The notes under the pieces: generated by a model
Seen by the model: only the letters and a program-made list of their open reading frames with translations
Databases searched by the model: none
Told to the model about the DNA's origin: nothing
Source of the DNA: a virus
Virus record (IMG/VR): IMGVR_UViG_3300045988_081205
DNA length: 64,000 nucleotides
Direction: 5' to 3' (one strand)
Translations under genes and position numbers: made by a program
In this document: in pieces, positions 2,815 through 61,364 of the stretch
Layout of the letters: each line of letters begins with the position of its first letter
Numbering within the stretch: the first letter of the stretch is position 1

Positions 2815-2901
2815 GATAAGAAGTTGCAAATTCTTATCATTTGAAGGAAGGTTGCTCGTCTCGACCTTCCTTACTCTACAAATTAAATCTAAGACGAGGA
2901 G
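2815..2901 (+). promoter_or_regulatory. structured 5' leader of HNH gene 2
   Basis: Hairpin 1 at 2815-2838 (GATAAGAA/TTCTTATC). Hairpin 2 at 2844-2872 (AAGGAAGGT/ACCTTCCTT). Loop CTCGTCT (2855-2861) is complementary to AGACGAG (2892-2898), which overlaps the SD GAGGAG. Confidence 0.6.
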
Positions 2902-2909
2902 ATTTTATT

Positions 2910-3473
2910 ATGGAAGAAATTTGGAAACCAGTTAAAGTTAGGGGAGAAGATTTCACAGGATATTATGAAGTTAGCAATTTAGGAAGAATTAAAAAATTGT
3001 CAACATGGAGTTGTGACGGTAAAAGATTTCTAAAAGAGCGGATTATGAAACAAACTCTTGATAAGAAGGGTTATTTGACTGTAAATTTGCAAAAGGGAAG
3101 TCGCCGTTTTACTCGTATATTTGTGCATAGAATAGTAGCAGAGGCATTTATTCCTAATCCAAATGATCTACCTCAAGTTGGGCATAAAGACGATACGGTA
3201 TTAAAGACTAATAACTGTATTGAAAATCTTTATTGGACAACTAACAAAGAAAATGCAAATACAGAAGGAAGAAAACAAAGATTATCTATGTCTCATATGG
3301 GCGCAAAAAATCATGGTGCTAGAGCTGTGATATGTGAAGGCATTACATTTCCAACGATGTCCGATTGCGCTAAACATTATAATATATTTGTTCAAAATAT
3401 ATGTGCGTGGTTAAATGGGAGAGAAAAAATGCCAAACCTATGGATTCAAAGAGGACTAAAAAGAGTTGATTAA
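2910..3473 (+). CDS. free-standing HNH homing endonuclease (NUMOD4-like + HNH_3-like)
   Basis: MEEIWKPV...GYYEVSNLGRIKKL and VHRIVAEAFIPNP...GHKDD...NLYWTTNKEN. The ATG at 2910 is preferred over the track start 2841 because of the SD GAGGAG and the alignment with 152-826. Confidence 0.85.
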   Translation: MEEIWKPVKVRGEDFTGYYEVSNLGRIKKLSTWSCDGKRFLKERIMKQTLDKKGYLTVNLQKGSRRFTRIFVHRIVAEAFIPNPNDLPQVGHKDDTVLKTNNCIENLYWTTNKENANTEGRKQRLSMSHMGAKNHGARAVICEGITFPTMSDCAKHYNIFVQNICAWLNGREKMPNLWIQRGLKRVD

Positions 3474-3555: not shown

Positions 3556-4185
3556 TTGAATAGATTTCTATGTGTAGCTCAACTGCAAGAACTGCGAATC
3601 GACCTATATCAGACCCATATGAAAGCCAAATTCAGCGTCATCACTAATCATCAATGCCTTACTATGAGCCAAACATTGAGCCGCAAATGGAATGAGCCGC
3701 AAATCAAATCATGGCTGACAATGGCACAATATATCCATCCACGTATAGACAGCTATATATATGTCAAAAATAAACATTATTATACAATGAAAAAATCTGA
3801 TATACCTACTAGGCTATTGGTATCAGGCAATATCAATGAATGGAAAAAATCATTATATTATAATGTGCAATATTGCCGTATAGTTGAATATAATGCAGCT
3901 GATAGCATGAATATAGAAATGGATGGGCAATGGCTGGATTCATGGAGATTCTTGAATATATGCGGCGATTCACCTAGAGTGTTTACTATCAAGCGTCCTG
4001 ACGGCTGTGAGGGCTGTATATGCCGATTGCGGCTTGAATATGATGCAGGATATAACATAGAGCAAAATCGGGTCATAGCGCATCCTAGCGGTCTTGGTGT
4101 GGTTGATTGCAAGAAAACAGATGCGGTTATGAGCCAAGAAGAAATTGATAAGTGGATGTTAGAATATGAGATAATTTCCTCTTGA
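3556..4185 (+). CDS. hypothetical protein
   Basis: 209-aa ORF (TTG start in the track; true start uncertain). No recognised motif. Confidence 0.5.
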   Translation: MNRFLCVAQLQELRIDLYQTHMKAKFSVITNHQCLTMSQTLSRKWNEPQIKSWLTMAQYIHPRIDSYIYVKNKHYYTMKKSDIPTRLLVSGNINEWKKSLYYNVQYCRIVEYNAADSMNIEMDGQWLDSWRFLNICGDSPRVFTIKRPDGCEGCICRLRLEYDAGYNIEQNRVIAHPSGLGVVDCKKTDAVMSQEEIDKWMLEYEIISS

Positions 4186-4210
4186 CAAATCAATCAACAT
4201 ATGATATACT
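4182..4210 (+). promoter_or_regulatory. sigma-A-type promoter
   Basis: TTGACA 4182-4187, 17-nt spacer, TGaTATACT ending at 4210. Confidence 0.7.
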
Positions 4211-4387: not shown

Positions 4388-4866
4388 GCAAGCCACCTAC
4401 AGTTAAATGCCGCCAATGCGGTAAATCAACGCCAAAACAAGATGCAATCGAATATAAGCCTAAGTTCTATTTCTGCTGTGAACAATGTAGGCAGGATTAT
4501 ATCAATGCTCATATCGTTAAGCCCAAAGCAGAATCAAAAGATGATAGGCGCAAATTGCTGGATTATATACGTCAAGTTGCCCCTGATGCCAATATGCGGC
4601 TTGTAGGTATCCAGCTTGCTCAGTTGATGAAAGATAATCCTGATATGACATATGGCGGCATTGCTTATACTATCAGATATATCCATAAAGAGCTTGGAAA
4701 GGATATATCTCAATCGCCGCTTGGACTGGTCAAGTATAAGTATGATGAATGTAAAAAATATTATGCTTGGCTAAATCAGGTAAGACAGAATATACAGCAA
4801 TGGCAAGCTGAAGATGGAGTTGAGACGATTGTGAAAAGAAATGATGAGGAGGATGTGTTTGGATGA
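4384..4866 (+). CDS. hypothetical Zn-ribbon protein
   Basis: N-terminal CxxC...CCxxC. 160 aa. Confidence 0.6.
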   Translation: MSKPPTVKCRQCGKSTPKQDAIEYKPKFYFCCEQCRQDYINAHIVKPKAESKDDRRKLLDYIRQVAPDANMRLVGIQLAQLMKDNPDMTYGGIAYTIRYIHKELGKDISQSPLGLVKYKYDECKKYYAWLNQVRQNIQQWQAEDGVETIVKRNDEEDVFG

Positions 4867-5123
4867 AACATAAAATGATTGGATGTTCTGAAGAATGCCT
4901 AGAATTTGCCTGTTGCGATTTCTGCATCTATGTTCACCATGATTTTTTCTTTGATAAAGACGGTGATATTGTCCGTGGCGGACCAGTTGGATGTGGATTG
5001 CATGACGATGAGCGTCATCAAGATATCGCTGAAAGCTGTGGTCATTGTCCTGATTTCCATTGTTTTAGAGCACATGAAGATAATATGGTTGTAAAGGAGA
5101 TTGATGATGATGACGTGGTATAG
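4863..5123 (+). CDS. hypothetical Cys/His-rich protein
   Basis: 86-aa ORF, translationally coupled. TAG stop. Confidence 0.5.
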   Translation: MKHKMIGCSEECLEFACCDFCIYVHHDFFFDKDGDIVRGGPVGCGLHDDERHQDIAESCGHCPDFHCFRAHEDNMVVKEIDDDDVV

Positions 5124-5331
5124 TATTGGCAAAAATAGTAAACCAGATGATTATGAATGGGTGCTTGTTTCATTTCTTACAGAAGACAGTAGACAAAGAT
5201 GCTCTGGCACTTGTGTTGTAGCTGCACTTTGGGAAGATGATGAGGGATGTGCTATATGGTATGACGGTAATCGATTCTATAACATTCATACAACAGACCG
5301 TTGGGCATATATTGAATTGCCGGAGGAATAA
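5101..5331 (+). CDS. DUF551-like small protein
   Basis: The W...P...EWVLV...W...RWAYIELP pattern is shared with 8846-9079. Confidence 0.45.
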   Translation: MMMMTWYSIGKNSKPDDYEWVLVSFLTEDSRQRCSGTCVVAALWEDDEGCAIWYDGNRFYNIHTTDRWAYIELPEE

Positions 5332-5334
5332 TCA

Positions 5335-6807
5335 TTGCTCTATGACCAAAATTCTGTTAGGCTGCTATTAGGTTGTTTGCTAATTAAGCCATCTCTTGCT
5401 ATTTCTGATAAGTACCCTCTAAGCCGTGATGATTTTACGGTCGATTTTCATCTCAGATTATGGCAAGGGTGTGTTGCCCTAGCTAAGCGTGGAGCTGAGT
5501 CCATATCGTCACTAGACATTTATATGCTATGTAAGAACAATAAGCAGGTAGAGGATATATTCAAGTTAAATCAGTTAGACGATTTCATTGATACAGTCAA
5601 GCAGCTTGCTAATGTAGGTAATTTTGAGGTCTATTACAACAACACGCGCCGAGCCACATTACTTCGTTCTTACAAAAACGCTGGCTATAATGTAGACAAA
5701 TTTGAGCAAGACGATAAAGCGACCATAGAGGATATAGTACAATACTTTGACGCACAGCAAATAGCTATAAAAAAGCAATTTTATAAAGACAAGGATATAG
5801 ACGAGCTAAAAGCCGGTGATGGATTTGAAGCGGTTAAAGAGGGATTTAAGGCAGAGCCGCTATTCGGTGCAACGACTTTTAGTGAATATCTAAACACAGC
5901 AGCTAGAGGCTGGATTCCGGGGCAGCTATCTATCTATTCAGTCGGTTCAGGCGTAGGAAAGTCAACTATTGGCTTGGCTAATCTTGTGCAAGTATGTTGT
6001 CCTAGAATCTATGATATGGATAAGGGGCAATATGTAGACAATCCATGTTATCAACATAAAGCTGGTCTATATCTTCAATTTGAAATGGCTGGTGATACTG
6101 AAATTACGCCTAAAATTGTGGCTACAATTAGCGGCGTACCATGCTTTAGCATCTTGAATGGGCGGTATGAAGAAGGTGAAGAAGAGCGTGTGGATGAGGC
6201 TATTAAAATTCTGCATGAATCTAAGTTATATATCGTCACCATGCCCAATTATACTGTTGATTTGATTGAATCCTATGTAAAGGATTATGTAGTCAATAAG
6301 CAAGTGGGCTTCCTATGTTATGATTATATCGTTGAATCCTCATCTGTATCGAGCGACTTAGCTAAAAAGAATGGCGTATCTACTCGTTCAGATCAGGTGC
6401 TATCTGGCATAGCAAGTAAGCTCAAGGATTTAGCTGTTGAATATAATATCGCCGTCTTGACATTTACTCAGGTCAATGCTAATGCTATGACGCAAGAAAT
6501 TATGGATAGCGGCGTTGCGGCTGGTTCAAGAGCAATTCAGAACAAGGCTGATGTAGCTGGCGTAATCATGCCATTACGCCGTAAGGAGCAAGAGATAGCT
6601 GATATGATGATGGAGAAATATTCTGATAAGATAAAGCCAAATCGCGTATTACACCTCTATAAGATGCGCTTCTCACAGGTTGAGCAAGGTATTAAGATAT
6701 ATTTTAATCTTGATTTGAATACAGGTCGAACAAAGGATTGTTTTGTAACCACAAAATTCGATAATCCTTATCAATTAACTAAGACAAGGTTGGTGTATGC
6801 TAAATGA
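5335..6807 (+). CDS. replicative DNA helicase, DnaB-like
   Basis: N-terminal LLGCLLIKPSL-type DnaB N-domain. Walker A GSGVGKST. ~490 aa. TTG start. Confidence 0.8.
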   Translation: MLYDQNSVRLLLGCLLIKPSLAISDKYPLSRDDFTVDFHLRLWQGCVALAKRGAESISSLDIYMLCKNNKQVEDIFKLNQLDDFIDTVKQLANVGNFEVYYNNTRRATLLRSYKNAGYNVDKFEQDDKATIEDIVQYFDAQQIAIKKQFYKDKDIDELKAGDGFEAVKEGFKAEPLFGATTFSEYLNTAARGWIPGQLSIYSVGSGVGKSTIGLANLVQVCCPRIYDMDKGQYVDNPCYQHKAGLYLQFEMAGDTEITPKIVATISGVPCFSILNGRYEEGEEERVDEAIKILHESKLYIVTMPNYTVDLIESYVKDYVVNKQVGFLCYDYIVESSSVSSDLAKKNGVSTRSDQVLSGIASKLKDLAVEYNIAVLTFTQVNANAMTQEIMDSGVAAGSRAIQNKADVAGVIMPLRRKEQEIADMMMEKYSDKIKPNRVLHLYKMRFSQVEQGIKIYFNLDLNTGRTKDCFVTTKFDNPYQLTKTRLVYAK

Positions 6808-8352: not shown

Positions 8353-8381
8353 TTGACAATCAACCTCCTTTATGATATAAT
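8353..8381 (+). promoter_or_regulatory. sigma-A-type promoter
   Basis: TTGACA 8353-8358, 17-nt spacer, TGaTATAAT ending at 8381. Confidence 0.75.
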
Positions 8382-11041: not shown

Positions 11042-11070
11042 TTGACAAAGCCTCCTGTTCATGGTATACT
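11042..11070 (+). promoter_or_regulatory. sigma-A-type promoter
   Basis: TTGACA 11042-11047, 17-nt spacer, TGgTATACT ending at 11070. Confidence 0.75.
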
Positions 11071-15214: not shown

Positions 15215-15243
15215 TTGACAAATATCTATATATGTGATATAAT
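15215..15243 (+). promoter_or_regulatory. sigma-A-type early promoter
   Basis: TTGACA 15215-15220, 17-nt spacer, TGaTATAAT ending at 15243. Confidence 0.75.
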
Positions 15244-17197: not shown

Positions 17198-17391
17198 TTA
17201 AACGGCTATGCGATATTTGTGGTAAAGAGATTATAGGACTTAGAGATAGATATGCTGTTAGCATTGACAATGATTGCGTAAAAGCTGAATATTTTAAAGT
17301 TATTGAGGACGTATGCTCAGATTGCGCAAATTCTATTTATCACTATATTGAAGGCTTAAAAAAGCCTATTGACAAATCAACTGAATCGTGA
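17194..17391 (+). CDS. hypothetical Zn-ribbon protein
   Basis: CDICG...CSDC. 65 aa. Confidence 0.5.
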   Translation: MIKRLCDICGKEIIGLRDRYAVSIDNDCVKAEYFKVIEDVCSDCANSIYHYIEGLKKPIDKSTES

Positions 17392-17397
17392 TAATAT
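17369..17397 (+). promoter_or_regulatory. sigma-A-type promoter
   Basis: TTGACA 17369-17374, 17-nt spacer, TGaTAATAT ending at 17397. Confidence 0.6.
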
Positions 17398-24259: not shown

Positions 24260-24928
24260 TCATCCCTTATTAGCTAATTTCTCCATCAAGTCTTTATTGT
24301 ATTTATATGTATCTAGCCAATCTACTGTAGCATCAGTAAATCCAAAGCGGCTCTTTACTTTTGCTTTATTCGCCTCATGCTTTTCGTCAATCTTCTCAGC
24401 TTTAGACCCATCGTTAAGCACCATTACAGTATGTCTAGATTCATTGACTAGCACATCGCCACGCTTGAGATAATCACTAGATGTTAGATATTTCTTGTCT
24501 GTAATCATCTCAAATTTGCCCGTCTTAGCCCATTGCTGTTTCATCTGGAATGTAGCAGGAGCATTGCCCTGTGCATATGCTACATCCATATTAACACCAG
24601 CCGCCTCAGCACATACCGCCATAAATGCGCTACAGTCTGTTTCACATGGCGTCTTGATTGCAGCTAGATTCCAAGCAACTTTCTTTGCTTCGGCTCTAAG
24701 CGTGTTTCTTTGCCATTGGTCATAGCCAATATTTTTATTAGCTACACCGGCTTCACATGCTTTAGCCATCTTTTCAGCCGTCTTTGGGTCTTTGGCTCGA
24801 ATCAACAAGGTCCATCCGCCATTATACCAGTTAGACCGATTCAACTCACGACCTGATTGATTGCCAGCTTGACCACCATGAATACCACCATGTTCATCAA
24901 TGCTGGCTTGACCGATATATACAGCCAT
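24260..24928 (-). CDS. endolysin, cysteine-peptidase type (NlpC/P60- or CHAP-like)
   Basis: Candidate catalytic Cys in ETDCSAFMAVC and His in ESRHTVMV. Lies immediately after a holin gene. Confidence 0.6.
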   Translation of the reverse strand: MAVYIGQASIDEHGGIHGGQAGNQSGRELNRSNWYNGGWTLLIRAKDPKTAEKMAKACEAGVANKNIGYDQWQRNTLRAEAKKVAWNLAAIKTPCETDCSAFMAVCAEAAGVNMDVAYAQGNAPATFQMKQQWAKTGKFEMITDKKYLTSSDYLKRGDVLVNESRHTVMVLNDGSKAEKIDEKHEANKAKVKSRFGFTDATVDWLDTYKYNKDLMEKLANKG

Positions 24929-28661: not shown

Positions 28662-30155
28662 TTATGTTCCATCTACTAGATAATATGGATACCAGCTTGA
28701 CGCTGATATGGTCATACTATTTGTATCACCGTATTGTGCATTATATGACTGTATCATATATTTCTTTGGGTCACCCTGTAATTTCATAGCATGACTCATA
28801 ATAATATTGACATCAAGCCAAGGAATTGGTATAGTAGCTAATGAAATACTATCATTAAGCCGACAGCGCCAATATAGCTCTATATCAGCTCTTTGTTTAG
28901 CCAAATCATTAGACATGATATTATCATATTCGCCGCTATAGCATACATGGCGAATAATACCAACGGAGCTAGAACCAACAGGGTTACCAACGTAGAACGG
29001 GCTATCTGGATTATCGTCATATGCCACAGCTGATGCTTGGTCATTACCCAAGTCTAAGAACGTGTGATTTGCTTGAAACTGAGCGACATAATATTTGTCT
29101 TTTTCAAGATAGTTTGCACCAGACCCATCTTTATTAACAAGTTTATATGTACCTAATATGGTTGGCGCTGCTTCACTAGCGCCAGCTGTAATCTTTAGAT
29201 AGATAGAACCTGTCACCTTACTAGGAGGCACAAAGCCAACCAACGTCCATTCTTGTAATGGTGAACCACCTGTTGCAGTTGGCGTTAATGATGGTATATG
29301 CAAAGTAACGGTCGAGCCATCCACTGTGGTATTATCGCTAAAATGGTCAATATTATGACTACGCCCATATACCTCTATATAATTCTTGACATTCTCAAAA
29401 TCTGTGTTTACTGATTCTGAGATGAGAATGTTCTGCCATACATCGTCATCAATCAATACAGGGTCATTTGCACCAGTTGGAATAAGCTCATAGTGAAATA
29501 CGCCATCTACGTCAAAATACATCTGATATTGTGGCAAGATAGCACATAGCTCTTTGAGAATATCATATACAGTACCGCCTTGAGCTATCTCAATATCATA
29601 TGGCACTTCTTGAATTGCGCCATCTACGTTCTTACATTCACTAACAATATACTTGTTGAACCCGCCTAATTCCAATGCGGCGATTATAGCACCACGCACA
29701 TCTGAACCTTGTGGCACTTTAGTAGGTACGCCCGGCAATTCGCCATTTCTCAATCCTGTTAATTTTGACATCAAGTCAAGCCCTGAGAAAGATAGAGTAT
29801 ATGTCGCCGCATCATATTGATAACTAGGCGCATTGATTAGATAGATGCCCTGATTATACCATTGGATATTACCAGTACGAATATTAAGATATCCTATCCA
29901 TGGTCTGATATATTTGTCAAGGAAAATCTTGCCACCGGGTTTAATCTCAAATGAGCTATCTGTTACAACTAAGCTGCACTCACACGAACGCCGCAAATCA
30001 GCATTAGCATCAACTGTGACTGATAACCCAATCAGGTTGCCGCTTAGTTCATCTACTACGTTCATGTTGAAATCCAACAGGTCTAGCTTAATATATTGCT
30101 TGATATATGATTGTCTAAGGATGTTATAATCATCCTGTGTGATATTCAATGCCAT
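28662..30155 (-). CDS. putative baseplate / tail-associated structural protein
   Basis: 497 aa. Position downstream of the tape measure. Confidence 0.45.
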   Translation of the reverse strand: MALNITQDDYNILRQSYIKQYIKLDLLDFNMNVVDELSGNLIGLSVTVDANADLRRSCECSLVVTDSSFEIKPGGKIFLDKYIRPWIGYLNIRTGNIQWYNQGIYLINAPSYQYDAATYTLSFSGLDLMSKLTGLRNGELPGVPTKVPQGSDVRGAIIAALELGGFNKYIVSECKNVDGAIQEVPYDIEIAQGGTVYDILKELCAILPQYQMYFDVDGVFHYELIPTGANDPVLIDDDVWQNILISESVNTDFENVKNYIEVYGRSHNIDHFSDNTTVDGSTVTLHIPSLTPTATGGSPLQEWTLVGFVPPSKVTGSIYLKITAGASEAAPTILGTYKLVNKDGSGANYLEKDKYYVAQFQANHTFLDLGNDQASAVAYDDNPDSPFYVGNPVGSSSVGIIRHVCYSGEYDNIMSNDLAKQRADIELYWRCRLNDSISLATIPIPWLDVNIIMSHAMKLQGDPKKYMIQSYNAQYGDTNSMTISASSWYPYYLVDGT

Positions 30156-32555: not shown

Positions 32556-35500
32556 CTAACTACGTCTTGTCACATATTGTTGCGCCAATTCTCTAAGTCC
32601 ACTTACGAACGATTGAGCATCGCGCACATTGGGTAATGTAACATTGCTAATGTTGAGCGTCTGCGCCAAACTCTGTGCTTTTTGAGCCAAAGACGACAAC
32701 ATATCGCTAGGTGTCATAGACCCCCAACGCCATAGATTGTCCGTAATGCCGCTTGGTAGGATACCATCGCCCTGATTCAGCACTCTCAGCTCTGGACCAT
32801 TTTCACCAACTAAAGATAAGCCGCTGTCGGCATTACGTGTGCCACGAGCATAACCTTGAGCGCCTATCTTCTTCATTTCGGATGCATAGTTTAATAAGTA
32901 TCCTTTAGTAATATCATATTGAGCTTTATCATATAAGTCTTGAACTTCGTCTTTCGTTAATGATTCACTAAATAATTTGTCATATAATCGTTGATCGGCA
33001 AGTCCCTCAAAATCAAGCGCATCTGCTACATTGTATTCAGTCGCTAAAAGATCAGCTGGTATTTTTTTGTAGCCACCATGCATAGCGGCTGATGTATTGC
33101 TTTGGTCAATATAACCGAGCTCATCTTGCTTAAATTCTCCCGGTTTAGTGCTCCAAGCATCGGTCTGATGCTCCCAAGCCTCTTTGTATAAATCACGGTT
33201 GCTAGCCCATGTGTCTTGTTTGCTAACATCTGTTCCGAAATATTTTGAAGCGGCTTCATCGCCATATGCCTCTCTATATTCCTTAATCATTTGTTGCTTA
33301 GTATCTCTGAGCTGAGTCCAATATGCAACTTCAGCCTGAGACTGAGCGTTCTTTATCTTTTCGCCAAAGTCGGTTTGAACACCATAAGACCTTACATTTT
33401 CTTCACGAATCTGTTTCTTTAGCTCGGCTTCACGTTGCCGCCTTTCTTCTCTGGCTGCCTGTGCTTCGTTATATGCTATAAGAATTTGTTTGTAAGCATC
33501 ACCGGGCTTCATTGCCTCACCGAAAGTATCATATAGACCCTCTTCAGACATCCCCTCATACACAGTTCCAGATATCTGTCCTTGGGCATATTGTAACAGA
33601 TGCTTACGAAGAGCGTTTGGGTAATTTAGAACATCACCGCCATTGCTGAAATACTTTTTAAAGAACGCTTTCGATTCATCGCCTAGCATAGACATTAAGT
33701 CTTTAGTTTGGCTCTGTTCTATACCACGATACGTCTCTTGATAGTCTTTCTGCGCACTAGATATAGCATCGGAATCTTGCATATATTGGAAGCGCCCTTC
33801 ACTATATACTAGCATACGGCGCTGTTTAGCTTTTTCTAATGCCTCTAGCTTTTCTTCAAGGGCTATCTTATCCTCTAGTAGCTGATTCTGACGGTCATAT
33901 TCTTCTGCTGCTTCTTCAGCTATTCCTTTTTCAGCGGAGGCGTTCTTTACAGCTTTCGCAACTGCGGCATTATATTGTTCTTCGATGCTGGCACCCATCT
34001 GACGAATCATCGCCCAAGCTTCTTCAATGGCCGTAATAGCGCTATTCGCGTTTCCGCTTGCAAATGCCTGATGAATAGAGCCTGTTATAGATGATACAGT
34101 AGACGATACTTTGTCTTTTAGCCCATCTAGCAAACCACTAATAGAACCGGACAAATCGCCGCAATTCTTCTCAATATAAGTGATAAGCTCGTCAACACTA
34201 TATGTGCCCTCAGATACAATCTCAGAAAATAGCGTTTTTAGTACTTCAACAAATTGAGCAAATTCAGCCTCAGCTTGTTTATACTGTTCACTTGTTTCAT
34301 CAAATCCTTGTTGCTTGAGCTGAGATAGGTAATCCTGATAGGATTGATATATAGTGGCTACTTCTGATAGAGTTGACTGTAAATCAGATTTACTAATATC
34401 TGGGTCAATTAGTTTGAGACGTGTTGACTCGTCTGTTAGATATTCGCGCAGTTCTTCAATGGTATTGATGGTTTGAGCTTTGACCTCTTCTTGGTCTTTT
34501 TTGGTTGAGGATGAACCTCCTCCGCCACCACCACCTGTTGAGACAAACGGCTTGATGGATTCGAGCTGTTTCTTATACTCTTCCATCTTCTTTTTGTAAT
34601 TGCTTTGCCCAGCCGATTGTATTTGAGACGTAACCCATTTATTAAATCCCGCTATATCAGCATCAGCGCTTTTACCAAAAGTACGAAAATAAGCTTGTCG
34701 CAAGCCCTCCATATCGCTAGTTGTACCAGCGGCTCTACCACCAACAAGGTCAGACGCAGTACTAACGCCAGCCATATCCATCATAGACGCTAATTGGCTA
34801 GTGGTAATCATTGCAGCATTGCCAACCTCTTGAATAGCTAGTATCAACGCGCTAAAATCAGCTTGAGCTTGTGCCTGTTGTGCCTGAATAAATGACTGAG
34901 CCATACTAGCCATAGAACCAGATGTAGATAATGCCTGTTTAGCCGCTTCTGTTAATTGTCCATTAGCATCAAATAGAGAATTGACCAGTACACCACTAGC
35001 ATCATCCGCATTTTCATTTGCACCACGATATTGGTCAAGCGCGGCTATGTAGGTATCTAGCTTAGATGCTGATTCTTCTTCTGCTACACCAAGCTCTTGT
35101 ACGTCATTAGCTGCTCCGCTTAAATCAGTATTTTGTACTACACCATTAAGCGTTTCCCAGTTATTGATAAAATCAACTTGCCACTGGTCAAGATTTTCGC
35201 CATTATCTGCAAGAATTTTTAGAGCATTATAATAATCCTCTGTTGATGTTACAAGCTCACCTACTTGCCGAGTAGCAGAATCACTAGACGTAATAACATC
35301 TTGAGTATATTTTGACCAATTAGCTAATGACTGCCCTTGAGATTGCGCCCAATCAATCGTCTTTTGCTTTGTTTCGGTGATTGTAACACCCAATCCATTA
35401 AGAGCGTTTTTAGCAATTTCAGCAGCCTCGCTCCAATTTCCAAGAGAGGATGCCTCTAAATAGGCATCATATGATGTAGAATCTACATACTCATGTAGAG

Positions 35501-36956
35501 CTTCAAACGCTGCATTGGTTGCATCTTCAACAGACTCGAACGTTCCCTTTAGCGCATTTGCTTGTTCATCTGTTATAGTTAGAGTTTGTTGCCAAGTTGT
35601 AAGTGTTTTGTTACCAAATTCATCTGTGCTTAATCCGCTTACGGTTGCGCCAGTTACTTGTTTACCACCAGTTGTAACTTTACGGGCTGCCTCAACTGTG
35701 TCTGTCTGACGTAATTCAATCAGCTTTTCATAAGCTTCAATCTGCTTCTCTAGCTGCTCACGTTCTGCTTGTAGTTCTGCTTCGTTACCATCATATGGTG
35801 TATTATTAAGCTCATCTAGCTTTTTCTTAGTTTCTTCATACCCTGTCTTGGTATTTTCTAGCTCTTGGTTAGCTTCGTCCATAGAGGCAACAAGATTCTC
35901 AAACTTATTGTTTTCTACGGCTTGATTTACAGCTTTAATAACTTCAACTAAAGCTGTAATAGCTGCAACTGTGCCACCAACTATGAGCGCGATTTTGCCA
36001 CTGGCAAGCATACCTAGGAACGAGTCGCCACCAACTCCTAGATTTTTAAGTTGTAAACCAACCTCAGCTATCTTGCCTACAGTTTGCCCAACGATACCAA
36101 CTAGACCAGTAACACCAGTGCTTAATACACCAATTCTAGTAACAGCTGCGCCGACATCATTGTTAGCAAAATTAAGCATAGCTGTACCAGCATTGATGAA
36201 ACCGCCAACTAGGTCTTTTGATAATACGCGATTTGCAAAATCTTCAAATTCTGCTTTAAGAGCCTGTTGCTTTGCTTCTAGGCTCTCCATATATTTACTG
36301 TTTTCCTGTGCCGCAGAGCCAGCAGACTCTAAGGCTGCTTTGGTTGCATCAGCCGCATGACCAAAGTTCTGCATCACACTGGCAAGGACTTTATATTGAT
36401 TCTGTCCCGCGATAGTATCACCAAGAGCCGTTCTTTGTGCATCTGTCATTGAATCCCATTTAGGCTTCAATTCAGACAGCACATCAAATGTACTCTTTAG
36501 ACTACCGTCTACATTTTCTACTGTAATGCCATATTCTGCAAGCGCATCTTGATTCTTTACAATACGAGCCGCAATAGTAGATAATCCACGCGCAACCTGA
36601 CTACTGCGCCCTTGCATGATTTCTGTACCGCTAGTTACGAGACCTATGACTTGTTCAAATGAATTGCCATAAGTAGCCATACCACTAGCGGCAATTTCCA
36701 TTGCTTGTGATATGTCATTGGTGCCTACACTAAAATTGTTTGCCACTTCATTGTATGCGTCTATAACATGAGTGGCAAAATTAGCATCTTTACCAAATGC
36801 ACGAATCTGAGAAACAATAGATGCGGCTGCATCTTCTGCTGAAACAGCCGTATCAGCTACGTTCTGATAAGAAGCAGCAACTTTTGCAAGCATAGCGGCA
36901 TCCGAATCGTTGAATCCGCTCTTGCGGAACATAGATGCTGCTGATACCATCTCTGA
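32556..36956 (-). CDS. tail tape-measure protein, exon 2
   Basis: About 1466 codons, Ala/Gln-rich and helical, with TP901-type core (FRKSGFNDSDAAMLAKVAASYQNVAD...). Joins in frame to exon 1 after intron removal. Confidence 0.85.
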   Translation of the reverse strand, partial: SEMVSAASMFRKSGFNDSDAAMLAKVAASYQNVADTAVSAEDAAASIVSQIRAFGKDANFATHVIDAYNEVANNFSVGTNDISQAMEIAASGMATYGNSFEQVIGLVTSGTEIMQGRSSQVARGLSTIAARIVKNQDALAEYGITVENVDGSLKSTFDVLSELKPKWDSMTDAQRTALGDTIAGQNQYKVLASVMQNFGHAADATKAALESAGSAAQENSKYMESLEAKQQALKAEFEDFANRVLSKDLVGGFINAGTAMLNFANNDVGAAVTRIGVLSTGVTGLVGIVGQTVGKIAEVGLQLKNLGVGGDSFLGMLASGKIALIVGGTVAAITALVEVIKAVNQAVENNKFENLVASMDEANQELENTKTGYEETKKKLDELNNTPYDGNEAELQAEREQLEKQIEAYEKLIELRQTDTVEAARKVTTGGKQVTGATVSGLSTDEFGNKTLTTWQQTLTITDEQANALKGTFESVEDATNAAFEALHEYVDSTSYDAYLEASSLGNWSEAAEIAKNALNGLGVTITETKQKTIDWAQSQGQSLANWSKYTQDVITSSDSATRQVGELVTSTEDYYNALKILADNGENLDQWQVDFINNWETLNGVVQNTDLSGAANDVQELGVAEEESASKLDTYIAALDQYRGANENADDASGVLVNSLFDANGQLTEAAKQALSTSGSMASMAQSFIQAQQAQAQADFSALILAIQEVGNAAMITTSQLASMMDMAGVSTASDLVGGRAAGTTSDMEGLRQAYFRTFGKSADADIAGFNKWVTSQIQSAGQSNYKKKMEEYKKQLESIKPFVSTGGGGGGGSSSTKKDQEEVKAQTINTIEELREYLTDESTRLKLIDPDISKSDLQSTLSEVATIYQSYQDYLSQLKQQGFDETSEQYKQAEAEFAQFVEVLKTLFSEIVSEGTYSVDELITYIEKNCGDLSGSISGLLDGLKDKVSSTVSSITGSIHQAFASGNANSAITAIEEAWAMIRQMGASIEEQYNAAVAKAVKNASAEKGIAEEAAEEYDRQNQLLEDKIALEEKLEALEKAKQRRMLVYSEGRFQYMQDSDAISSAQKDYQETYRGIEQSQTKDLMSMLGDESKAFFKKYFSNGGDVLNYPNALRKHLLQYAQGQISGTVYEGMSEEGLYDTFGEAMKPGDAYKQILIAYNEAQAAREERRQREAELKKQIREENVRSYGVQTDFGEKIKNAQSQAEVAYWTQLRDTKQQMIKEYREAYGDEAASKYFGTDVSKQDTWASNRDLYKEAWEHQTDAWSTKPGEFKQDELGYIDQSNTSAAMHGGYKKIPADLLATEYNVADALDFEGLADQRLYDKLFSESLTKDEVQDLYDKAQYDITKGYLLNYASEMKKIGAQGYARGTRNADSGLSLVGENGPELRVLNQGDGILPSGITDNLWRWGSMTPSDMLSSLAQKAQSLAQTLNISNVTLPNVRDAQSFVSGLRELAQQYVTRRS

Positions 36957-36976
36957 CGGTTATAAATTATCTAATA

Positions 36977-37180
36977 TTATAGCTTTCCCCAACGCCAATC
37001 ATCATCTAATCCCCATTCATTGATTCGCCGCTCTTCCTCTTTTGCTCGGCTATCAATATGATAAGGTTGTTGATTATTTTGTTGATTGTCATGTTTTCCA
37101 AACAATCCAACTATCACACAGTATAATGTCCAGATACCAATAGCTGGAAAAATCAACATAATAAGCATTAAAGCAAACAT
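36977..37180 (-). CDS. intron-encoded small membrane protein (67 aa), not a homing endonuclease
   Basis: ATG at 37180 after AAAGGAGG. N-terminal TM segment (MFALMLIMLIFPAIGIWTLYCVIVGLF) and a charged Gln/Asp/Trp-rich tail. Bracketed by a 14-bp stem (36964-36977 / 37217-37230). Confidence 0.55.
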   Translation of the reverse strand: MFALMLIMLIFPAIGIWTLYCVIVGLFGKHDNQQNNQQPYHIDSRAKEEERRINEWGLDDDWRWGKL

Positions 37181-37206
37181 GATAGATACCTCCTTTAAGT
37201 ATCTAT

Positions 37207-37235
37207 AACATAGCACATATTAGATAATTTGTCAA
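37207..37235 (-). promoter_or_regulatory. promoter-like element inside the intron, upstream of the cargo ORF
   Basis: On the - strand: TTGACA (37235-37230), 17-nt spacer, TATGTT (37212-37207). Confidence 0.35.
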
Positions 37236-37574
37236 GGGGTTTTCAAGCCCTTCCCGAATAATTCTTTACCCTATATATTTGGAGGGTCGCCCTGTATATT
37301 CTGTTGACACATCCCTCATCAGGACTTCGCGCCCAATCTGCCCTTTTATGATACATTATTTATCATTGATTCTTTAGGTTTTTCAACCATGGAATCATCC
37401 TTATCGTCTTTCTGCTTTCGCACTAATTCATTGTTAATAATGAATAATTTTCACACTCAGGCATATCTCATCCTCATGTTGTAGTGATAAGGCTCTTGAG
37501 GCTTTCAAGGGTTTAGGGGCTGTTCTCTATGCACATTTACCATCTGTACATACCGGCTCAGACCGATTTGGTTT

Positions 37575-37973
37575 ACCGGTTCTTGCTACTTCTCTGCCAG
37601 ATTGACTTAGCTTTGTAACATATTTATCAAGTGCTGTACCCTGTAAATCACTGACCTTCTTAAAGTCGGTCATAGCATCATCAAGATTCTTGACTTGCTC
37701 ATACATACTGCTTAAAGCACCTGTTGCTAAATCAAGAACTTGTCTAAACTGCTGATAAGTAACAGCAATATTTTCTGTTTCTGCGTTAAGATTTTTCGTG
37801 GATTGAGTTACACCATCTAGCTCTTTTTTAGTTCGCTCTGCACCATCTGCTGTAACACCAATCTTTAACTTAGTATCTTTATTATTTTGGATTTCTCTAA
37901 GTTGTTTCTTTATACTCTCTTCCTGCAGCTGAACATCAACCAGAATCGAGTAGTTAGAGTTACTTCCAGCCAT
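37575..37973 (-). CDS. tail tape-measure protein, exon 1
   Basis: 133 codons ending ...SGREVARTG at the proposed 5' splice site. The track ORF 37527-37973 reads 16 codons into the intron before a TAG. Confidence 0.75.
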
Positions 37974-37976
37974 TCA

Positions 37977-38477
37977 TCACACTCCCTTTTTTATTTGTGA
38001 GTAGGCTATGAGGATTCCTTCTGCGCAATCATCCTCATTTTTTTTGCTACTTGGGGCAACCCATGCCAATTCGAGGCCAAATTCTTCATTCGCCATCTCT
38101 ATGGCTTTTTTCTTCAGAACATCTCTTTGTAATCCAGCTCTAGTACCATCAAAGAGATTAAGGTCGCCACGCCATTTACTTGGCATCAAGAAGCATGGCT
38201 TTATCTTGAAGCCAGCACATAATGCTAATATCACGCCTTGTACTGCGCCCAATTTTTCTATGGTAGACGCTCCTTTTTTTAATGGCACTTCCTCAGCATA
38301 GAGAATTGTCGGCTTATACTGTCTAAATATGCTTGATAATTCCATAGTAAGCCCCATTACTCTGTCATGCCAATCATCGCCCTTTGGCTTAATTGTGCCA
38401 TATGCAATGAGCCGCCCATTATCAAATATAGACCATCCAGTAGATGACGTACTAGCATCTAATCCTGCTATAATCAT
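37977..38477 (-). CDS. RuvC-like Holliday-junction resolvase
   Basis: MIIAGLDASTSSTGWSIF (first catalytic Asp), YAEEV, and C-terminal acidic residues. 166 aa. Confidence 0.6.
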   Translation of the reverse strand: MIIAGLDASTSSTGWSIFDNGRLIAYGTIKPKGDDWHDRVMGLTMELSSIFRQYKPTILYAEEVPLKKGASTIEKLGAVQGVILALCAGFKIKPCFLMPSKWRGDLNLFDGTRAGLQRDVLKKKAIEMANEEFGLELAWVAPSSKKNEDDCAEGILIAYSQIKKGV

Positions 38478-50671: not shown

Positions 50672-50913
50672 ATTTCGCCCTCCTTTCTTTATTTTATTGT
50701 TTATATATTAGAGCAGTTAGATTATGGACTTCATTAACGTATGCCAAAGTTCATTGAGCTACTTGTCCTCCCTATCCGCTCGTTTTATATTTTTGAGTGT
50801 TTTTGTTTTCAGCTTTTTGATTAAACCTAAGTTGGAACTTGGATTCCACACAACCCTAATAGCACCTCCACGGCAACATACCAACATAGCAGCCGCTTCA
50901 TAGGTAAGTCATA

Positions 50914-59469: not shown

Positions 59470-59498
59470 ATTATATCATATAATTGATTATTTGTCAA
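59470..59498 (-). promoter_or_regulatory. sigma-A-type promoter driving the leftward RNAP operon (proximal)
   Basis: On the - strand: TTGACA (59498-59493), 17-nt spacer, TGaTATAAT (59478-59470). Confidence 0.7.
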
Positions 59499-59513
59499 TA
59501 CTAAAATTTCTAC

Positions 59514-59542
59514 TTGACAAAAATTGATTGATGTGATATAAT
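59514..59542 (+). promoter_or_regulatory. sigma-A-type rightward promoter (upstream copy)
   Basis: TTGACA 59514-59519, 17-nt spacer, TGaTATAAT ending at 59542. No ORF follows for ~260 nt. Confidence 0.65.
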
Positions 59543-59562
59543 CTCTTATAAATTATAAATAT

Positions 59563-59591
59563 ATTATACCATATATTACAGTATTTGTCAA
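59563..59591 (-). promoter_or_regulatory. sigma-A-type leftward promoter (distal), face to face with the promoter at 59514
   Basis: On the - strand: TTGACA (59591-59586), 17-nt spacer, TGgTATAAT (59571-59563). Confidence 0.65.
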
Positions 59592-59675
59592 TAGTTAATT
59601 TATTCATAATTTATTAACATATAATTCATAATACTGTAATATTTATATGATATAATATCTAGTATATATAATTAC

Positions 59676-59721
59676 AATTTAACTATTATCTACTCATAAA
59701 TTCGTAGATAATAGTTAAATT
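59676..59721. repeat. 18-bp perfect inverted repeat
   Basis: AATTTAACTATTATCTAC (59676-59693) / GTAGATAATAGTTAAATT (59704-59721), 10-nt loop. Confidence 0.8.
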
Positions 59722-59753
59722 GATGTGAAAAATCAATTTATCAAAAATTATAC

Positions 59754-59782
59754 TTGACAAGTGCAAAATGATGTGATATAAT
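59754..59782 (+). promoter_or_regulatory. sigma-A-type promoter of the right-hand early block
   Basis: TTGACA 59754-59759, 17-nt spacer, TGaTATAAT ending at 59782. Confidence 0.75.
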
Positions 59783-60018: not shown

Positions 60019-60226
60019 CGCAGTAGTGCAATATGGCGATACTGACTGGATTATCAATGATTGCGGCAATGGACAATTCGAGCTATATAATATCAACACA
60101 AAGCAGATTTTAGCAAAGAGCAATAATCCACTAGATTTTGATAAGCATATAGACAAGATTTTTGGCAAGGAGGCGGCTAGACGTGTTCGAGATTTTCAAG
60201 CTAAACAAGAAGAAGAAAGCGCTTGA
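59996..60226 (+). CDS. hypothetical protein
   Basis: 76-aa ORF. Confidence 0.5.
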   Translation: MPRTKKINAVVQYGDTDWIINDCGNGQFELYNINTKQILAKSNNPLDFDKHIDKIFGKEAARRVRDFQAKQEEESA

Positions 60227-61364
60227 AGAGCAGATTTCTCAACTCAAAGCAGATATTTCTAGTATGCAAACAGAGATTGATAACTATGACGAACATCGGC
60301 AAATTGCGGCACATCAATATGAAAACACCATGCGATCTGCAAAAGCGGCTCAGTCTATCCTTGATGCGTTAAATGGTAAAATTCATGCCATTGAAGAAAT
60401 GCAGGATTATAATATCCCGTATTATCAAGATTCGTTAGATGAGCTTGAGCATAAGCGCTATGAGCTACAAAGCAAAATTGAATCAGCTGTGAATACTGGA
60501 TTGTATCGCATTGAGCAAGGATATACGCTCAATGACTCTGCTAGGCGCGGCAAAGAAATGCAGGACGTGTATGGGCGCGGATTGATTTACAGTTGCAACG
60601 CATATATTGACAGCAAAGAAAAATCTGTGACAACCGGCAATATTGCTAAAAGCAAAGAATTGATTAAAAATAAATTTAATTCTTATCAGTCTAAAGCAAA
60701 TAAAGTCGGATTGGCGCTTAATGCTGAATATGTGAAGGCACGGCTTGATATGCTTGATATTAGCTTAGCTATCAAGGTCAAGCAGAAAGAAGAAAAGACG
60801 CGAATCCGTGAAGAAAAGCGCAGATTGAGAGAACAAGAACAGTTACTTGCTGAGGCTGAGCGTGAAAAAGCAGAACTTCAGAAAGAGCGCAGAATGTATG
60901 AACAATCTCTCCGAAAGACACTCAATGCTGAAGAACGTGCTAAATTTGAAGCAACGCTTAAAGCAATCGATAAGCGTATTGCAGATATTGATTACCGTGT
61001 TAATAATGCAAAGGCTGGATATCTGTACATTGCTGCAACGCCAGCCATGCCAAATTGCTGCAAGCTGGGCGTAACACGTCGCCTTCAGCCCTTGCGTAGA
61101 ATTTCCGAATTGTCATCGGCATCAGTCCCATTTCCATTCGTTTGCTATGGGCTTGTATTTGATGATGACGTGTTTGACCTTGAGACGCGCATCCATGATT
61201 ATTTTGACGATAAGCGAGTTAATAAGGAAAATAAACATAAAGAATTTTTCTATGTGAGTCCCAAAGAAGCTATTGATGTACTGCGTAATGAATTTCATGT
61301 AGATGTTCATTTTGTAGATGAAGATTGTGATGAAAATGAGGAGGATTGCGCTGATGAAGGTTAA
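60183..61364 (+). CDS. DUF4041-like coiled coil + T5orf172 (MUG113, GIY-YIG-superfamily) domain protein
   Basis: Long coiled-coil N-terminal part. C-terminal GYLYIAATPAMP..CKLGVTRRL.PLRRISELS...FFYVSPKEAI fits T5orf172. GTG at 60183 after AAGGAGG. Confidence 0.55.
   Translation: MFEIFKLNKKKKALEEQISQLKADISSMQTEIDNYDEHRQIAAHQYENTMRSAKAAQSILDALNGKIHAIEEMQDYNIPYYQDSLDELEHKRYELQSKIESAVNTGLYRIEQGYTLNDSARRGKEMQDVYGRGLIYSCNAYIDSKEKSVTTGNIAKSKELIKNKFNSYQSKANKVGLALNAEYVKARLDMLDISLAIKVKQKEEKTRIREEKRRLREQEQLLAEAEREKAELQKERRMYEQSLRKTLNAEERAKFEATLKAIDKRIADIDYRVNNAKAGYLYIAATPAMPNCCKLGVTRRLQPLRRISELSSASVPFPFVCYGLVFDDDVFDLETRIHDYFDDKRVNKENKHKEFFYVSPKEAIDVLRNEFHVDVHFVDEDCDENEEDCADEG

Follow-up and report, generated by a model that had tools for sequence, protein, structure and literature searches.

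A small membrane-protein gene with its own promoter in a predicted group I intron of a phage tape-measure gene

Phage group I introns are usually treated as ribozymes that are either empty or occupied by a homing endonuclease, and their benefit to the phage is an open question, which was recently answered once, for a nuclease (PMC11620839). The locus studied here lies in a viral DNA stretch of 64,000 nucleotides (nt), IMG/VR record IMGVR_UViG_3300045988_081205, which as a whole is referred to as the window. On its minus strand an open reading frame (ORF) at 37973-37527 is followed by about 620 nt of intervening sequence and then by an ORF of 1464 amino acids (aa) at 36950-32556, and a small third ORF lies between the two. 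What is the intervening sequence, and why does it hold a small gene? In a preliminary description of this DNA it was taken to be an intron whose cargo is a membrane protein instead of a homing endonuclease. Based on the results of this study, the best overall explanation, in which we have moderate confidence, is an early membrane-effector gene looped out of a group I intron in the tape-measure protein (TMP) gene. The anatomy of the locus, i.e., the intron, its stem, the promoter, and the gene, can be stated with high confidence.

The intervening sequence of the tape-measure gene

As judged from the sequence comparisons presented here, the intervening sequence is a group I intron that splits the TMP gene and is predicted to be self-splicing. 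All features of the locus are on the minus strand. Exon 1 (37575-37973) starts with the ORF at 37973 and consists of 133 codons ending in ...GCA AGA ACC GGT (ARTG). It is followed by the intron of 618 nt (36957-37574) and by exon 2 (32556-36956), which begins with TCA GAG ATG GTA (SEMV...) and matches the PhageMin_Tail profile from profile position 21. The reading frame of exon 1 is closed by an in-frame TAG at 37527-37529, as read from the sequence, 15 codons into the intron and just past P2. This TAG is also conserved in the relatives. It would hold ribosomes out of the ribozyme core.

For comparison, more than 50 loci with the same insertion were collected from IMG/VR and metagenomes by means of the cargo protein and intron motifs, and they provided 36 distinct introns in which the cargo region is complete, as well as two divergent lineages. 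A scan with core motifs gave mostly chance matches, and five real relatives were left after filtering. Pattern scans of IMG/VR did not find intronless alleles, each match to the exon 2 motif having an intron. Among GenBank phages there was no DNA match to the region, and the ribozyme core gave one 47-nt local match only.

Both splice sites are marked by pairings between intron and exons that have changed together. The internal guide sequence UCUGA|GCCGGU (37552-37562; intron positions 13-23) contains the 3' strands of P10 and P1. P1 is formed by the exon end ACCGGU and the guide GCCGGU, with a U.G pair at the 5' splice site in 36/36 introns. The 5' exon always ends in ...GGU across lineages, and co-change of exon and guide was found in four lineages (ACCGGU/GCCGGU, ACUGGU/GCCAGU, ACGGGU/GCCCGU, and AGCGGU/GCCGC), with compensatory exon and guide changes seen in lineages L069, L119, and L138. 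Directly 5' of the P1 guide, the P10 strand UCUGA pairs with UCAGA of exon 2; this helix was paired in all 36 introns and reads GGGA/UCCC in L119. The final intron nucleotide, omega-G (36957), stands before TC(A/G)GA (TCCCA in L119) and is unvaried in all introns. In the six bases 3' of it changes are confined to third codon positions (TCA/TCG and GAG/GAA/GAC/GAT, that is, Ser-Glu/Asp, in the context S-E/D-M-V).

The predicted splice junction is ...GCAAGAACCGGT|TCAGAGATGGTA (ACCGGT|TCAGAG). The spliced product ...ARTG|SEMVSAAS... could be aligned without gaps to ARTADEMV / ARTADEMVEAAT in the TMP of the intronless Enterocloster phage PMBT24, and the junction peptide aligned uninterrupted to TMPs from Enterocloster and SPbeta-like phages. 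The 3' splice site was placed after G36957 because this position fits omega-G, P10, the third-position variation, and the gap-free alignment. Exon 2 had previously been thought to begin with the ATG at 36950, and this boundary has to be corrected to TCAGAG at 36956. Two other placements were tried and rejected. A splice site directly before that ATG would follow a G, A, C, or T, which cannot be omega-G, and a splice site directly after it would remove a Met that is conserved in intronless homologues. Moreover, further introns in relatives leave TMP mini-exons of just 8 to 28 codons and therefore the TMP gene needs splicing to work.

The comparative model spans P1 to P10 and includes the P3-P7-P8 pseudoknot and the P4-P6 domain. 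According to the comparative helix table, the ribozyme core and its extensions (P3, P4, P5, P6/P6a, P7, P8, and P9) occupy 37234-37520, or intron positions 55-341, and the long P5 extension bears two GAAA-capped hairpins. Compensatory changes among the 36 distinct introns were observed in P1, P2, P3, P5, P5a, P5b, P6a, P7, P8, and P9, the pairs being almost all canonical, while P4 and P6 do not vary among introns and are uninformative for covariation. An early core model, with P3 at intron positions 55-58/232-235 and without P7, was replaced after the covariation check; in the final model P3 is formed by 55-58/283-286 and P5 by 73-76/232-235. The intron of the divergent homologue L069, at the same insertion site, was matched by the Rfam model RF00028 (Intron_gpI) at model positions 1-253 (E 2.8e-6, 31.8 bits), and this alignment gives the same P3-P9 helix order as the comparative model. 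The covariation of P1 and P10, the omega-G, the compensatory pairs of the core, and the Rfam match of L069 together bear out the earlier view of the intervening sequence as an intron.

The cargo stem, promoter, and gene

The cargo of the intron is enclosed by a stem whose 5' arm, AAAUUAUCUAAUAU (37217-37230), and 3' arm, AUAUUAGAUAAUUU (36964-36977), make a perfect 14-bp inverted repeat. It is the final peripheral helix, P9.1-like in position, coming after the P9 hairpin and ending 7 nt before omega-G. An inverted repeat of 14 bp without mismatch did not occur in any of 500 dinucleotide shuffles of the intron. In the L022, L032, L052, and L069 types the stem at the same position is compensated or replaced by other sequence, reading ACAAAUUAUUCAAU/AUUGAAUAAUUUGU in the L022 type and, in two parts, AAUUAUU...UUUAAUCUUUU / AAAAGAUUAAA...AAUAAUU in the L032 type, and extending to 16 bp in L069, where it takes in the -35 hexamer. 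Predicted duplex energies ranged from -10.7 to -28 kcal/mol across 36/36 introns. The perfect 14-bp helix that had been proposed to loop the ORF out ahead of the 3' splice site is present as described at the periphery of the intron, and it covaries, a stem at this position being compensated or replaced in every cargo type. In each type examined, the 3' arm shares bases with the end of the last cargo ORF. The overlap of stem arm and stop codon reported before thus exists, but in the window it amounts to only one base, the first of the arm being the last of the TAA, and it is longer in relatives.

The 5' arm of the stem lies between the -35 and -10 elements of a consensus promoter of the sigma-A/sigma-70 type (37207-37235), which consists of TTGACA (37235-37230), a 17-nt spacer, a TGC extended -10, and TATGTT (37212-37207) and scored 10/12 consensus matches in the promoter scan. 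The TTGACA, the spacer of exactly 17 nt ending in TGn, and a TAnnnT -10 were found in all 36 distinct introns and also in the divergent lineages. There are nine different -10 hexamers, all TAnnnT, and the promoter is kept even where the spacer and stem sequences are unrelated.

The TTGACA-17-TATGTT element noticed earlier is therefore not only present and conserved; it also belongs to the phage's own consensus promoter class. The pattern TTGACA-N14-TGN-TANNNT has 13 matches in the window, against 0.12 expected. Seven of them (20-48, 2773-2801, 4182-4210, 8353-8381, 11042-11070, 15215-15243, and 17369-17397, plus strand) precede plus-strand genes of replication and nucleotide metabolism. Four others form a divergent cluster on both strands at 59470-59782, and this cluster at 59.5-59.8 kb looks like an early control region, to judge by its arrangement. 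These eleven non-cargo matches mostly read TTGACAA...TG(A/G)TATAAT. No match other than the cargo promoter was found on the strand that codes for the structural module. Since it shares its class with the promoters of the replication module, we infer early transcription of the cargo by host RNA polymerase, separate from the late TMP transcript. A further consensus match, at 28807-28835 on the plus strand, is antisense to minus-strand structural genes (ORF 28662-30155). There is no long plus-strand ORF downstream of it, and it could be the source of an antisense or small RNA or of a small gene.

The leader between promoter and gene contains a Shine-Dalgarno (SD) sequence, AAAGGAGG, which was located at 37189-37196, 8 nt 5' of the ATG, in agreement with the preliminary description. 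AAGGAG or a one-mismatch variant of it stands 7-9 nt before the ATG in 33/36 introns. A hairpin predicted at the ribosome-binding site (RBS), AUAGAUACUU-AAAGG-AGGUAUCUAU (37182-37206), pairs a portion of the SD and the bases just 5' of the AUG, but only in RNA whose 5' end is upstream of the cargo promoter. The full segment folds with -10.0 kcal/mol, versus -0.6 kcal/mol when the RNA begins 7 nt downstream of the -10, where the start site is predicted. Leader hairpins of -6 to -10 kcal/mol that are lost in the same way were predicted in 9/13 cargo types. In the RBS hairpin and the promoter the locus follows the design of the T4 intron ORFs, which had been missed before. A terminator-like hairpin at 36834-36819 in exon 2 was also considered and rejected, as it is explained by codons and is not conserved.

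The cargo ORF itself (36977-37180) encodes 67 aa followed by TAA, with an N-terminal transmembrane (TM) helix, a polar linker, and a conserved tail ...EEERRINEWGLDDDWRWGKL. The patterns of conservation indicate that it is a real gene for a small membrane protein. Its homologues form 57 clusters with 49-94% identity, in which the hydrophobic N-terminal part is variable and the tail RINEWGLDDDWRWGKL is almost invariant. In 14 distinct alleles the nonsynonymous divergence (dN) of the tail was 0.019 and the synonymous divergence (dS) 0.79, a ratio of 0.023, as compared with a whole-ORF dN/dS of 0.17. With so much synonymous change, the invariance of the tail must be at the protein level and not at the RNA level. 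The 67-aa ORF of the preliminary description is accordingly supported both by its homologues and by purifying selection.

The predicted N-terminal TM helix was likewise recovered, since the first 28 residues are hydrophobic and the hydropathy analysis gave one TM window (residues 6-24, mean 2.44). The AlphaFold2 model has a helix at residues 2-35 with a predicted local distance difference test score of about 90; the tail is of low confidence and so the model supports the TM helix only. The tail is acidic and Trp-rich and ends in N-E-W-G...D-W-R-W-G. Our own reading of the sequences of relatives with two and three TM segments by the positive-inside rule places their tails in the cytoplasm, and the tail of the window protein probably faces the cytoplasm as well. 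No significant match to the cargo was obtained in Pfam, PHROGs, NCBIfam, PADLOC, or PDB profiles, and no nuclease family or motif was found; the lack of endonuclease motifs observed earlier thus also holds against remote-homology libraries. The cargo proteins had no match among GenBank phages, and the peptide motif [EK]WGLDDDW was absent from the 185,579 reference genomes scanned.

The cassette in related phages and other features of the window

A survey of homologous introns had been suggested in the preliminary description. In all 36 introns and the two divergent lineages the promoter and the stem were kept, and the cargo consisted of variable cassettes of one to three small TM proteins. This variability had not been noticed before. 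The window has one ORF, the L001, L015, L017, and L038 types have two, and L016 and L018 have three; in the two-ORF types the second start overlaps the first stop (TAATG). Other introns encode different small TM proteins, which are 61-110 aa long and have between one and three TM segments. They share a tail motif, approximately K-x-Q-[DE]-K-Y-D-N-[DE]-[WY]-G-x-[IL], of which the window protein has an N-E-W-G version with an extra D-W-R-W-G. A profile search with the tail returned more than 1,100 clusters, none of which has a name or a Pfam domain, and the best 120 matches were close ORF-B-type proteins only. While the content of the cargo varies widely, every intron examined holds some cargo; an endonuclease is absent from all of those at this site, and the loop is never empty where the cargo region is complete.

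The three parts of the locus have not diverged to the same extent. Phages with exons of 63-75% identity have ribozyme cores of 93-94% identity, and their cargo, at about 64%, is in effect unrelated. This contrast indicates that the scaffold is conserved or exchanged as a unit, with the content of the loop swapped within it. The same cargo was found beside different exons, and different cargo beside near-identical exons. The GC content of the cargo is 34% versus 39% in the window. The window region is identical to the IMG/VR contig 3300045988_079215. Overall, the intron family appears to be fixed at one TMP site in a human-gut phage lineage.

Relatives can have up to two more introns in the TMP gene (4400-5620 and 6270-7830 in L001; just after the first intron in L052, L138, and L155). 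Some of these start 8 or 28 codons after the first intron, and all follow ...ACU. Their ORFs are of 256-377 aa; the three that were scanned gave only sub-threshold endonuclease-like matches (DUF2726, GIY-YIG). Nucleases of such nearby introns could mobilise the nuclease-less cargo intron by co-conversion.

The closest cultured relatives are siphophages of Enterocloster bolteae with genomes of about 100 kb and 38% TMP identity, one of which, PMBT24, has been described as virulent (PMC11035940). No integrase was found among the window ORFs scanned. The phage is probably virulent as well, because its cultured relatives are, because the scanned ORFs include no integrase, and because the cargo motif is absent from the 185,579 genomes.

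Several other features of the window were noted. A gene for a RuvC-like endonuclease (37977-38477, minus strand; Pfam RuvC, E 6.6e-6) immediately precedes the TMP gene, and the same gene order occurs in the intronless phage PMBT24. Genes for endonucleases with NUMOD4 and HNH_3 domains are present in the replication module at 152-826 and 2841-3473 (plus strand). The latter is flanked by ORFs of similar size (2152-2763 and 3556-4185) and may be a free-standing or intron-borne homing endonuclease that splits a gene. An ORF of 400 aa at 60162-61364 (plus strand), with a C-terminal T5orf172/MUG113 domain of the GIY-YIG-like nuclease family, adjoins the divergent promoter cluster. A full-length Rfam drum RNA (RF02958) was detected at 50792-50906 (minus strand) in the structural and packaging region, with 54.2 bits versus a gathering score of 43.

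The possible role of the cargo and comparison with known systems

How might such a gene be expressed without disturbing the essential gene around it? The loop would be a self-contained transcription unit with a host-type promoter, an RBS, and the 67-aa gene. A transcript from the cargo promoter would begin inside the 5' arm of the RBS hairpin and so would be translatable; it would also be without the 5' arm of the cargo stem. On the late pre-mRNA both the RBS hairpin and the cargo stem can form, and together they would bar ribosomes from the intron and draw the 3' splice site close to the core of the ribozyme. It seems reasonably likely, on these predicted structures, that the early mRNA is translated and that the late pre-mRNA keeps RBS and stem closed, so that splicing is undisturbed. 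The start site, its timing, and the topology of the protein are predictions here, as are the early transcription, the control by the hairpin, and the role discussed below.

The number of TM segments varies from one to three while the tails share a motif, and for this reason the TM part looks like an anchor and the tail like an effector. A variable anchor with a conserved tail suggests a membrane-tethered peptide that binds some partner facing the cytoplasm, and the fast turnover of the cassette points to a function in conflict. By analogy, our most likely guess is an early effector at the inner membrane face in conflict between phages or between phage and host. Within this range, superinfection exclusion at the DNA-entry step would be the first choice, although only as a tentative suggestion. 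Exclusion, a holin/antiholin-like function, and a toxin had been the candidate roles named in the preliminary description, all of them conjectural.

A further-reaching and more doubtful proposal is that the nuclease-less intron family persists and spreads as a recombination-friendly platform on which early membrane effectors, or 'intron-borne morons', are swapped. The cargo, and not homing, would then pay for the intron, with relatives being excluded at a TMP-dependent DNA-entry step or some other step. Interference competition would replace endonuclease-driven drive, and the ribozyme flanks would serve as portable homology arms.

Several observations weigh against the explanation of the locus as a looped-out early effector gene in a group I intron. 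The Rfam score of L069 is below the gathering score of 50, and the window intron itself had no Rfam group I match, either at the gathering score or at E<=10. There is no terminator between the cargo stop and the 3' splice site, and therefore RNA from the cargo promoter would run into exon 2. Most of the SD stays in the loop of the hairpin, where repression may be weak, and 4/13 cargo types do not have a clear leader-hairpin pattern. The flanking charges of the one-TM protein leave its orientation unfixed, its cytoplasmic tail being deduced from the relatives. No homology to superinfection exclusion (Sie), holin, toxin, or defence families was found in the curated libraries, and it is analogy alone that links the exclusion role to this protein.

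The cargo might instead be a membrane-damaging peptide, acting either as an addiction module in the manner of type I toxins or as a holin/antiholin-like factor of lysis timing. The intron would then be retained because the cargo does harm when lost or mis-expressed, or because it tunes lysis. Short length and hydrophobicity are also features of known type I toxins and holins, and a small protein with an N-terminal TM helix, a charged tail, and a structured 5' leader around the RBS would be in keeping with them, as would the very weak match of one relative's cargo to a holin PHROG (E 0.14). However, selection is strongest on the soluble tail motif (dN/dS 0.023) and not on the TM segment, and holins do not usually vary between one and three TM segments, as homologues with a common tail do here. 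The gene for lysis, with an endolysin-like domain (24260-24928), is located far from the cargo, and the profile libraries gave no significant match to a holin or toxin family. The promoter-like site in antisense orientation at 36953-36980 (plus strand) is weak, and it lacks conservation, since its counterparts in other cargo types, worked out manually from their 3' sequences, lose the -10. Such a peptide is considered unlikely.

An early host-takeover factor, e.g., a protein anchored in the membrane that inhibits cell division or some other membrane-proximal machine of the host, would involve nothing specific to competing phages or to the TMP. It would agree with the promoter class common to the replication module and with a small protein that has one TM helix and a probably cytoplasmic tail, and Firmicute phages are known to make small early TM proteins that inhibit division, e.g., SPO1 gp56. 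On the other hand, the copy number and type of the cassettes are highly variable between close phages, which is a better fit to a conflict locus, and no homology to known takeover proteins was found in the profile libraries. We give this possibility a low probability too.

It is very improbable that there is no intron at all and that two separate TMP polypeptides (148 aa and 1464 aa) are made, with an ordinary intergenic moron between them. The downstream ORF does open with an invariant ATG, and the window is without an Rfam match. But that ATG is the conserved internal Met of intronless homologues (ARTADEMVEAAT) and has no SD ahead of it at 36950; P1 and P10 covary with the exons, the omega-G is invariant, the ribozyme core covaries and has a homologue that matches Rfam, and relatives would need TMP fragments of just 8 to 28 residues. 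Finally, that the ORF, SD, and promoter are chance features of a loop, or the remnant of an eroded homing endonuclease, is hardly credible even in an AT-rich region (cargo 34% GC) where short ORFs are common, given the purifying selection with abundant synonymous change, the 57 homologue clusters in a superfamily of more than 1,100, the promoter in 36/36 introns, and the absence of an endonuclease domain in any library scanned.

If the cargo genes are expressed as predicted for the looped-out effector gene, phage introns would offer a safe site for accessory genes within essential genes, and the cargo would be a candidate, open to testing, for a novel class of membrane effectors made early by phages of gut Firmicutes. 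Annotation pipelines that look for endonucleases only will miss such intron genes and split the TMP gene in two.

Among known systems, a group I intron with a useful gene in place of a homing endonuclease is represented by the fungal mitochondrial rnl intron that carries rps3. The likeness is limited to a non-endonuclease ORF in a group I intron; the fungal case belongs to another domain of life and has a ribosomal protein, a single fixed gene, and neither an internal promoter nor cassette variation. A cargo that benefits its phage is known from the intron endonuclease gp210 of the jumbo phage PhiPA3, which gives an advantage over co-infecting relatives (PMC11620839). A benefit derived from the cargo is also suspected here, but the effector in PhiPA3 is a homing endonuclease that cuts the competitor genome, whereas here it is a membrane protein and the benefit is hypothetical.

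By analogy, the nearest functional counterpart may be gp15 of HK97, a small inner-membrane moron protein that blocks superinfection and DNA entry in a manner dependent on the tail of the incoming phage (PMC3594210). Like the cargo studied here, HK97 gene 15 is a small self-contained unit with its own promoter, located in the tail region by the TMP gene. Content varies among related phages, and the cargo studied here is slightly poorer in GC (34% versus 39-42%). However, the present unit lies inside a predicted self-splicing intron within the gene and not between genes, no terminator was found, the phage looks virulent and not temperate, so that expression from a repressed prophage, as in other morons, probably does not apply, and there is no sequence similarity to gp15. 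The resemblance of the cargo to proteins of the HK97 gp15, T4 Imm, and P22 SieA type does not go beyond overall architecture and a link to the TMP gene, and no sequence similarity to any annotated family was found.

The closest architectural parallel is found in the intron endonuclease genes of T4, where the sunY ORF, for instance, sits in P9.1. There, too, an essential phage gene is interrupted by a group I intron with an ORF looped out from a peripheral helix. The T4 intron ORFs have their own promoters, and their RBS hairpin forms only on read-through RNA, since the ORF promoter starts inside the hairpin (PMC2988022). Both the promoter within the host gene's transcription unit and the RBS hairpin on read-through RNA are paralleled in the present intron. 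Unlike in T4, the cargo is a 67-aa membrane protein and not a nuclease, relatives hold one to three genes, and no mobility function is visible. Moreover, the T4 ORFs use middle or late promoters in early or middle genes, whereas here an early, host-type promoter is placed in a late structural gene. No description of such intron cargo was found in the searched literature, although its coverage was incomplete and this absence is weak evidence. The ribozyme with a looped-out ORF that has its own promoter and RBS hairpin was thus already known from T4, and a benefit of intron cargo was known for one nuclease (PMC11620839); what is new here is the kind of cargo, the exchangeable cassette of one to three genes, and the early-type promoter inside a late structural gene.

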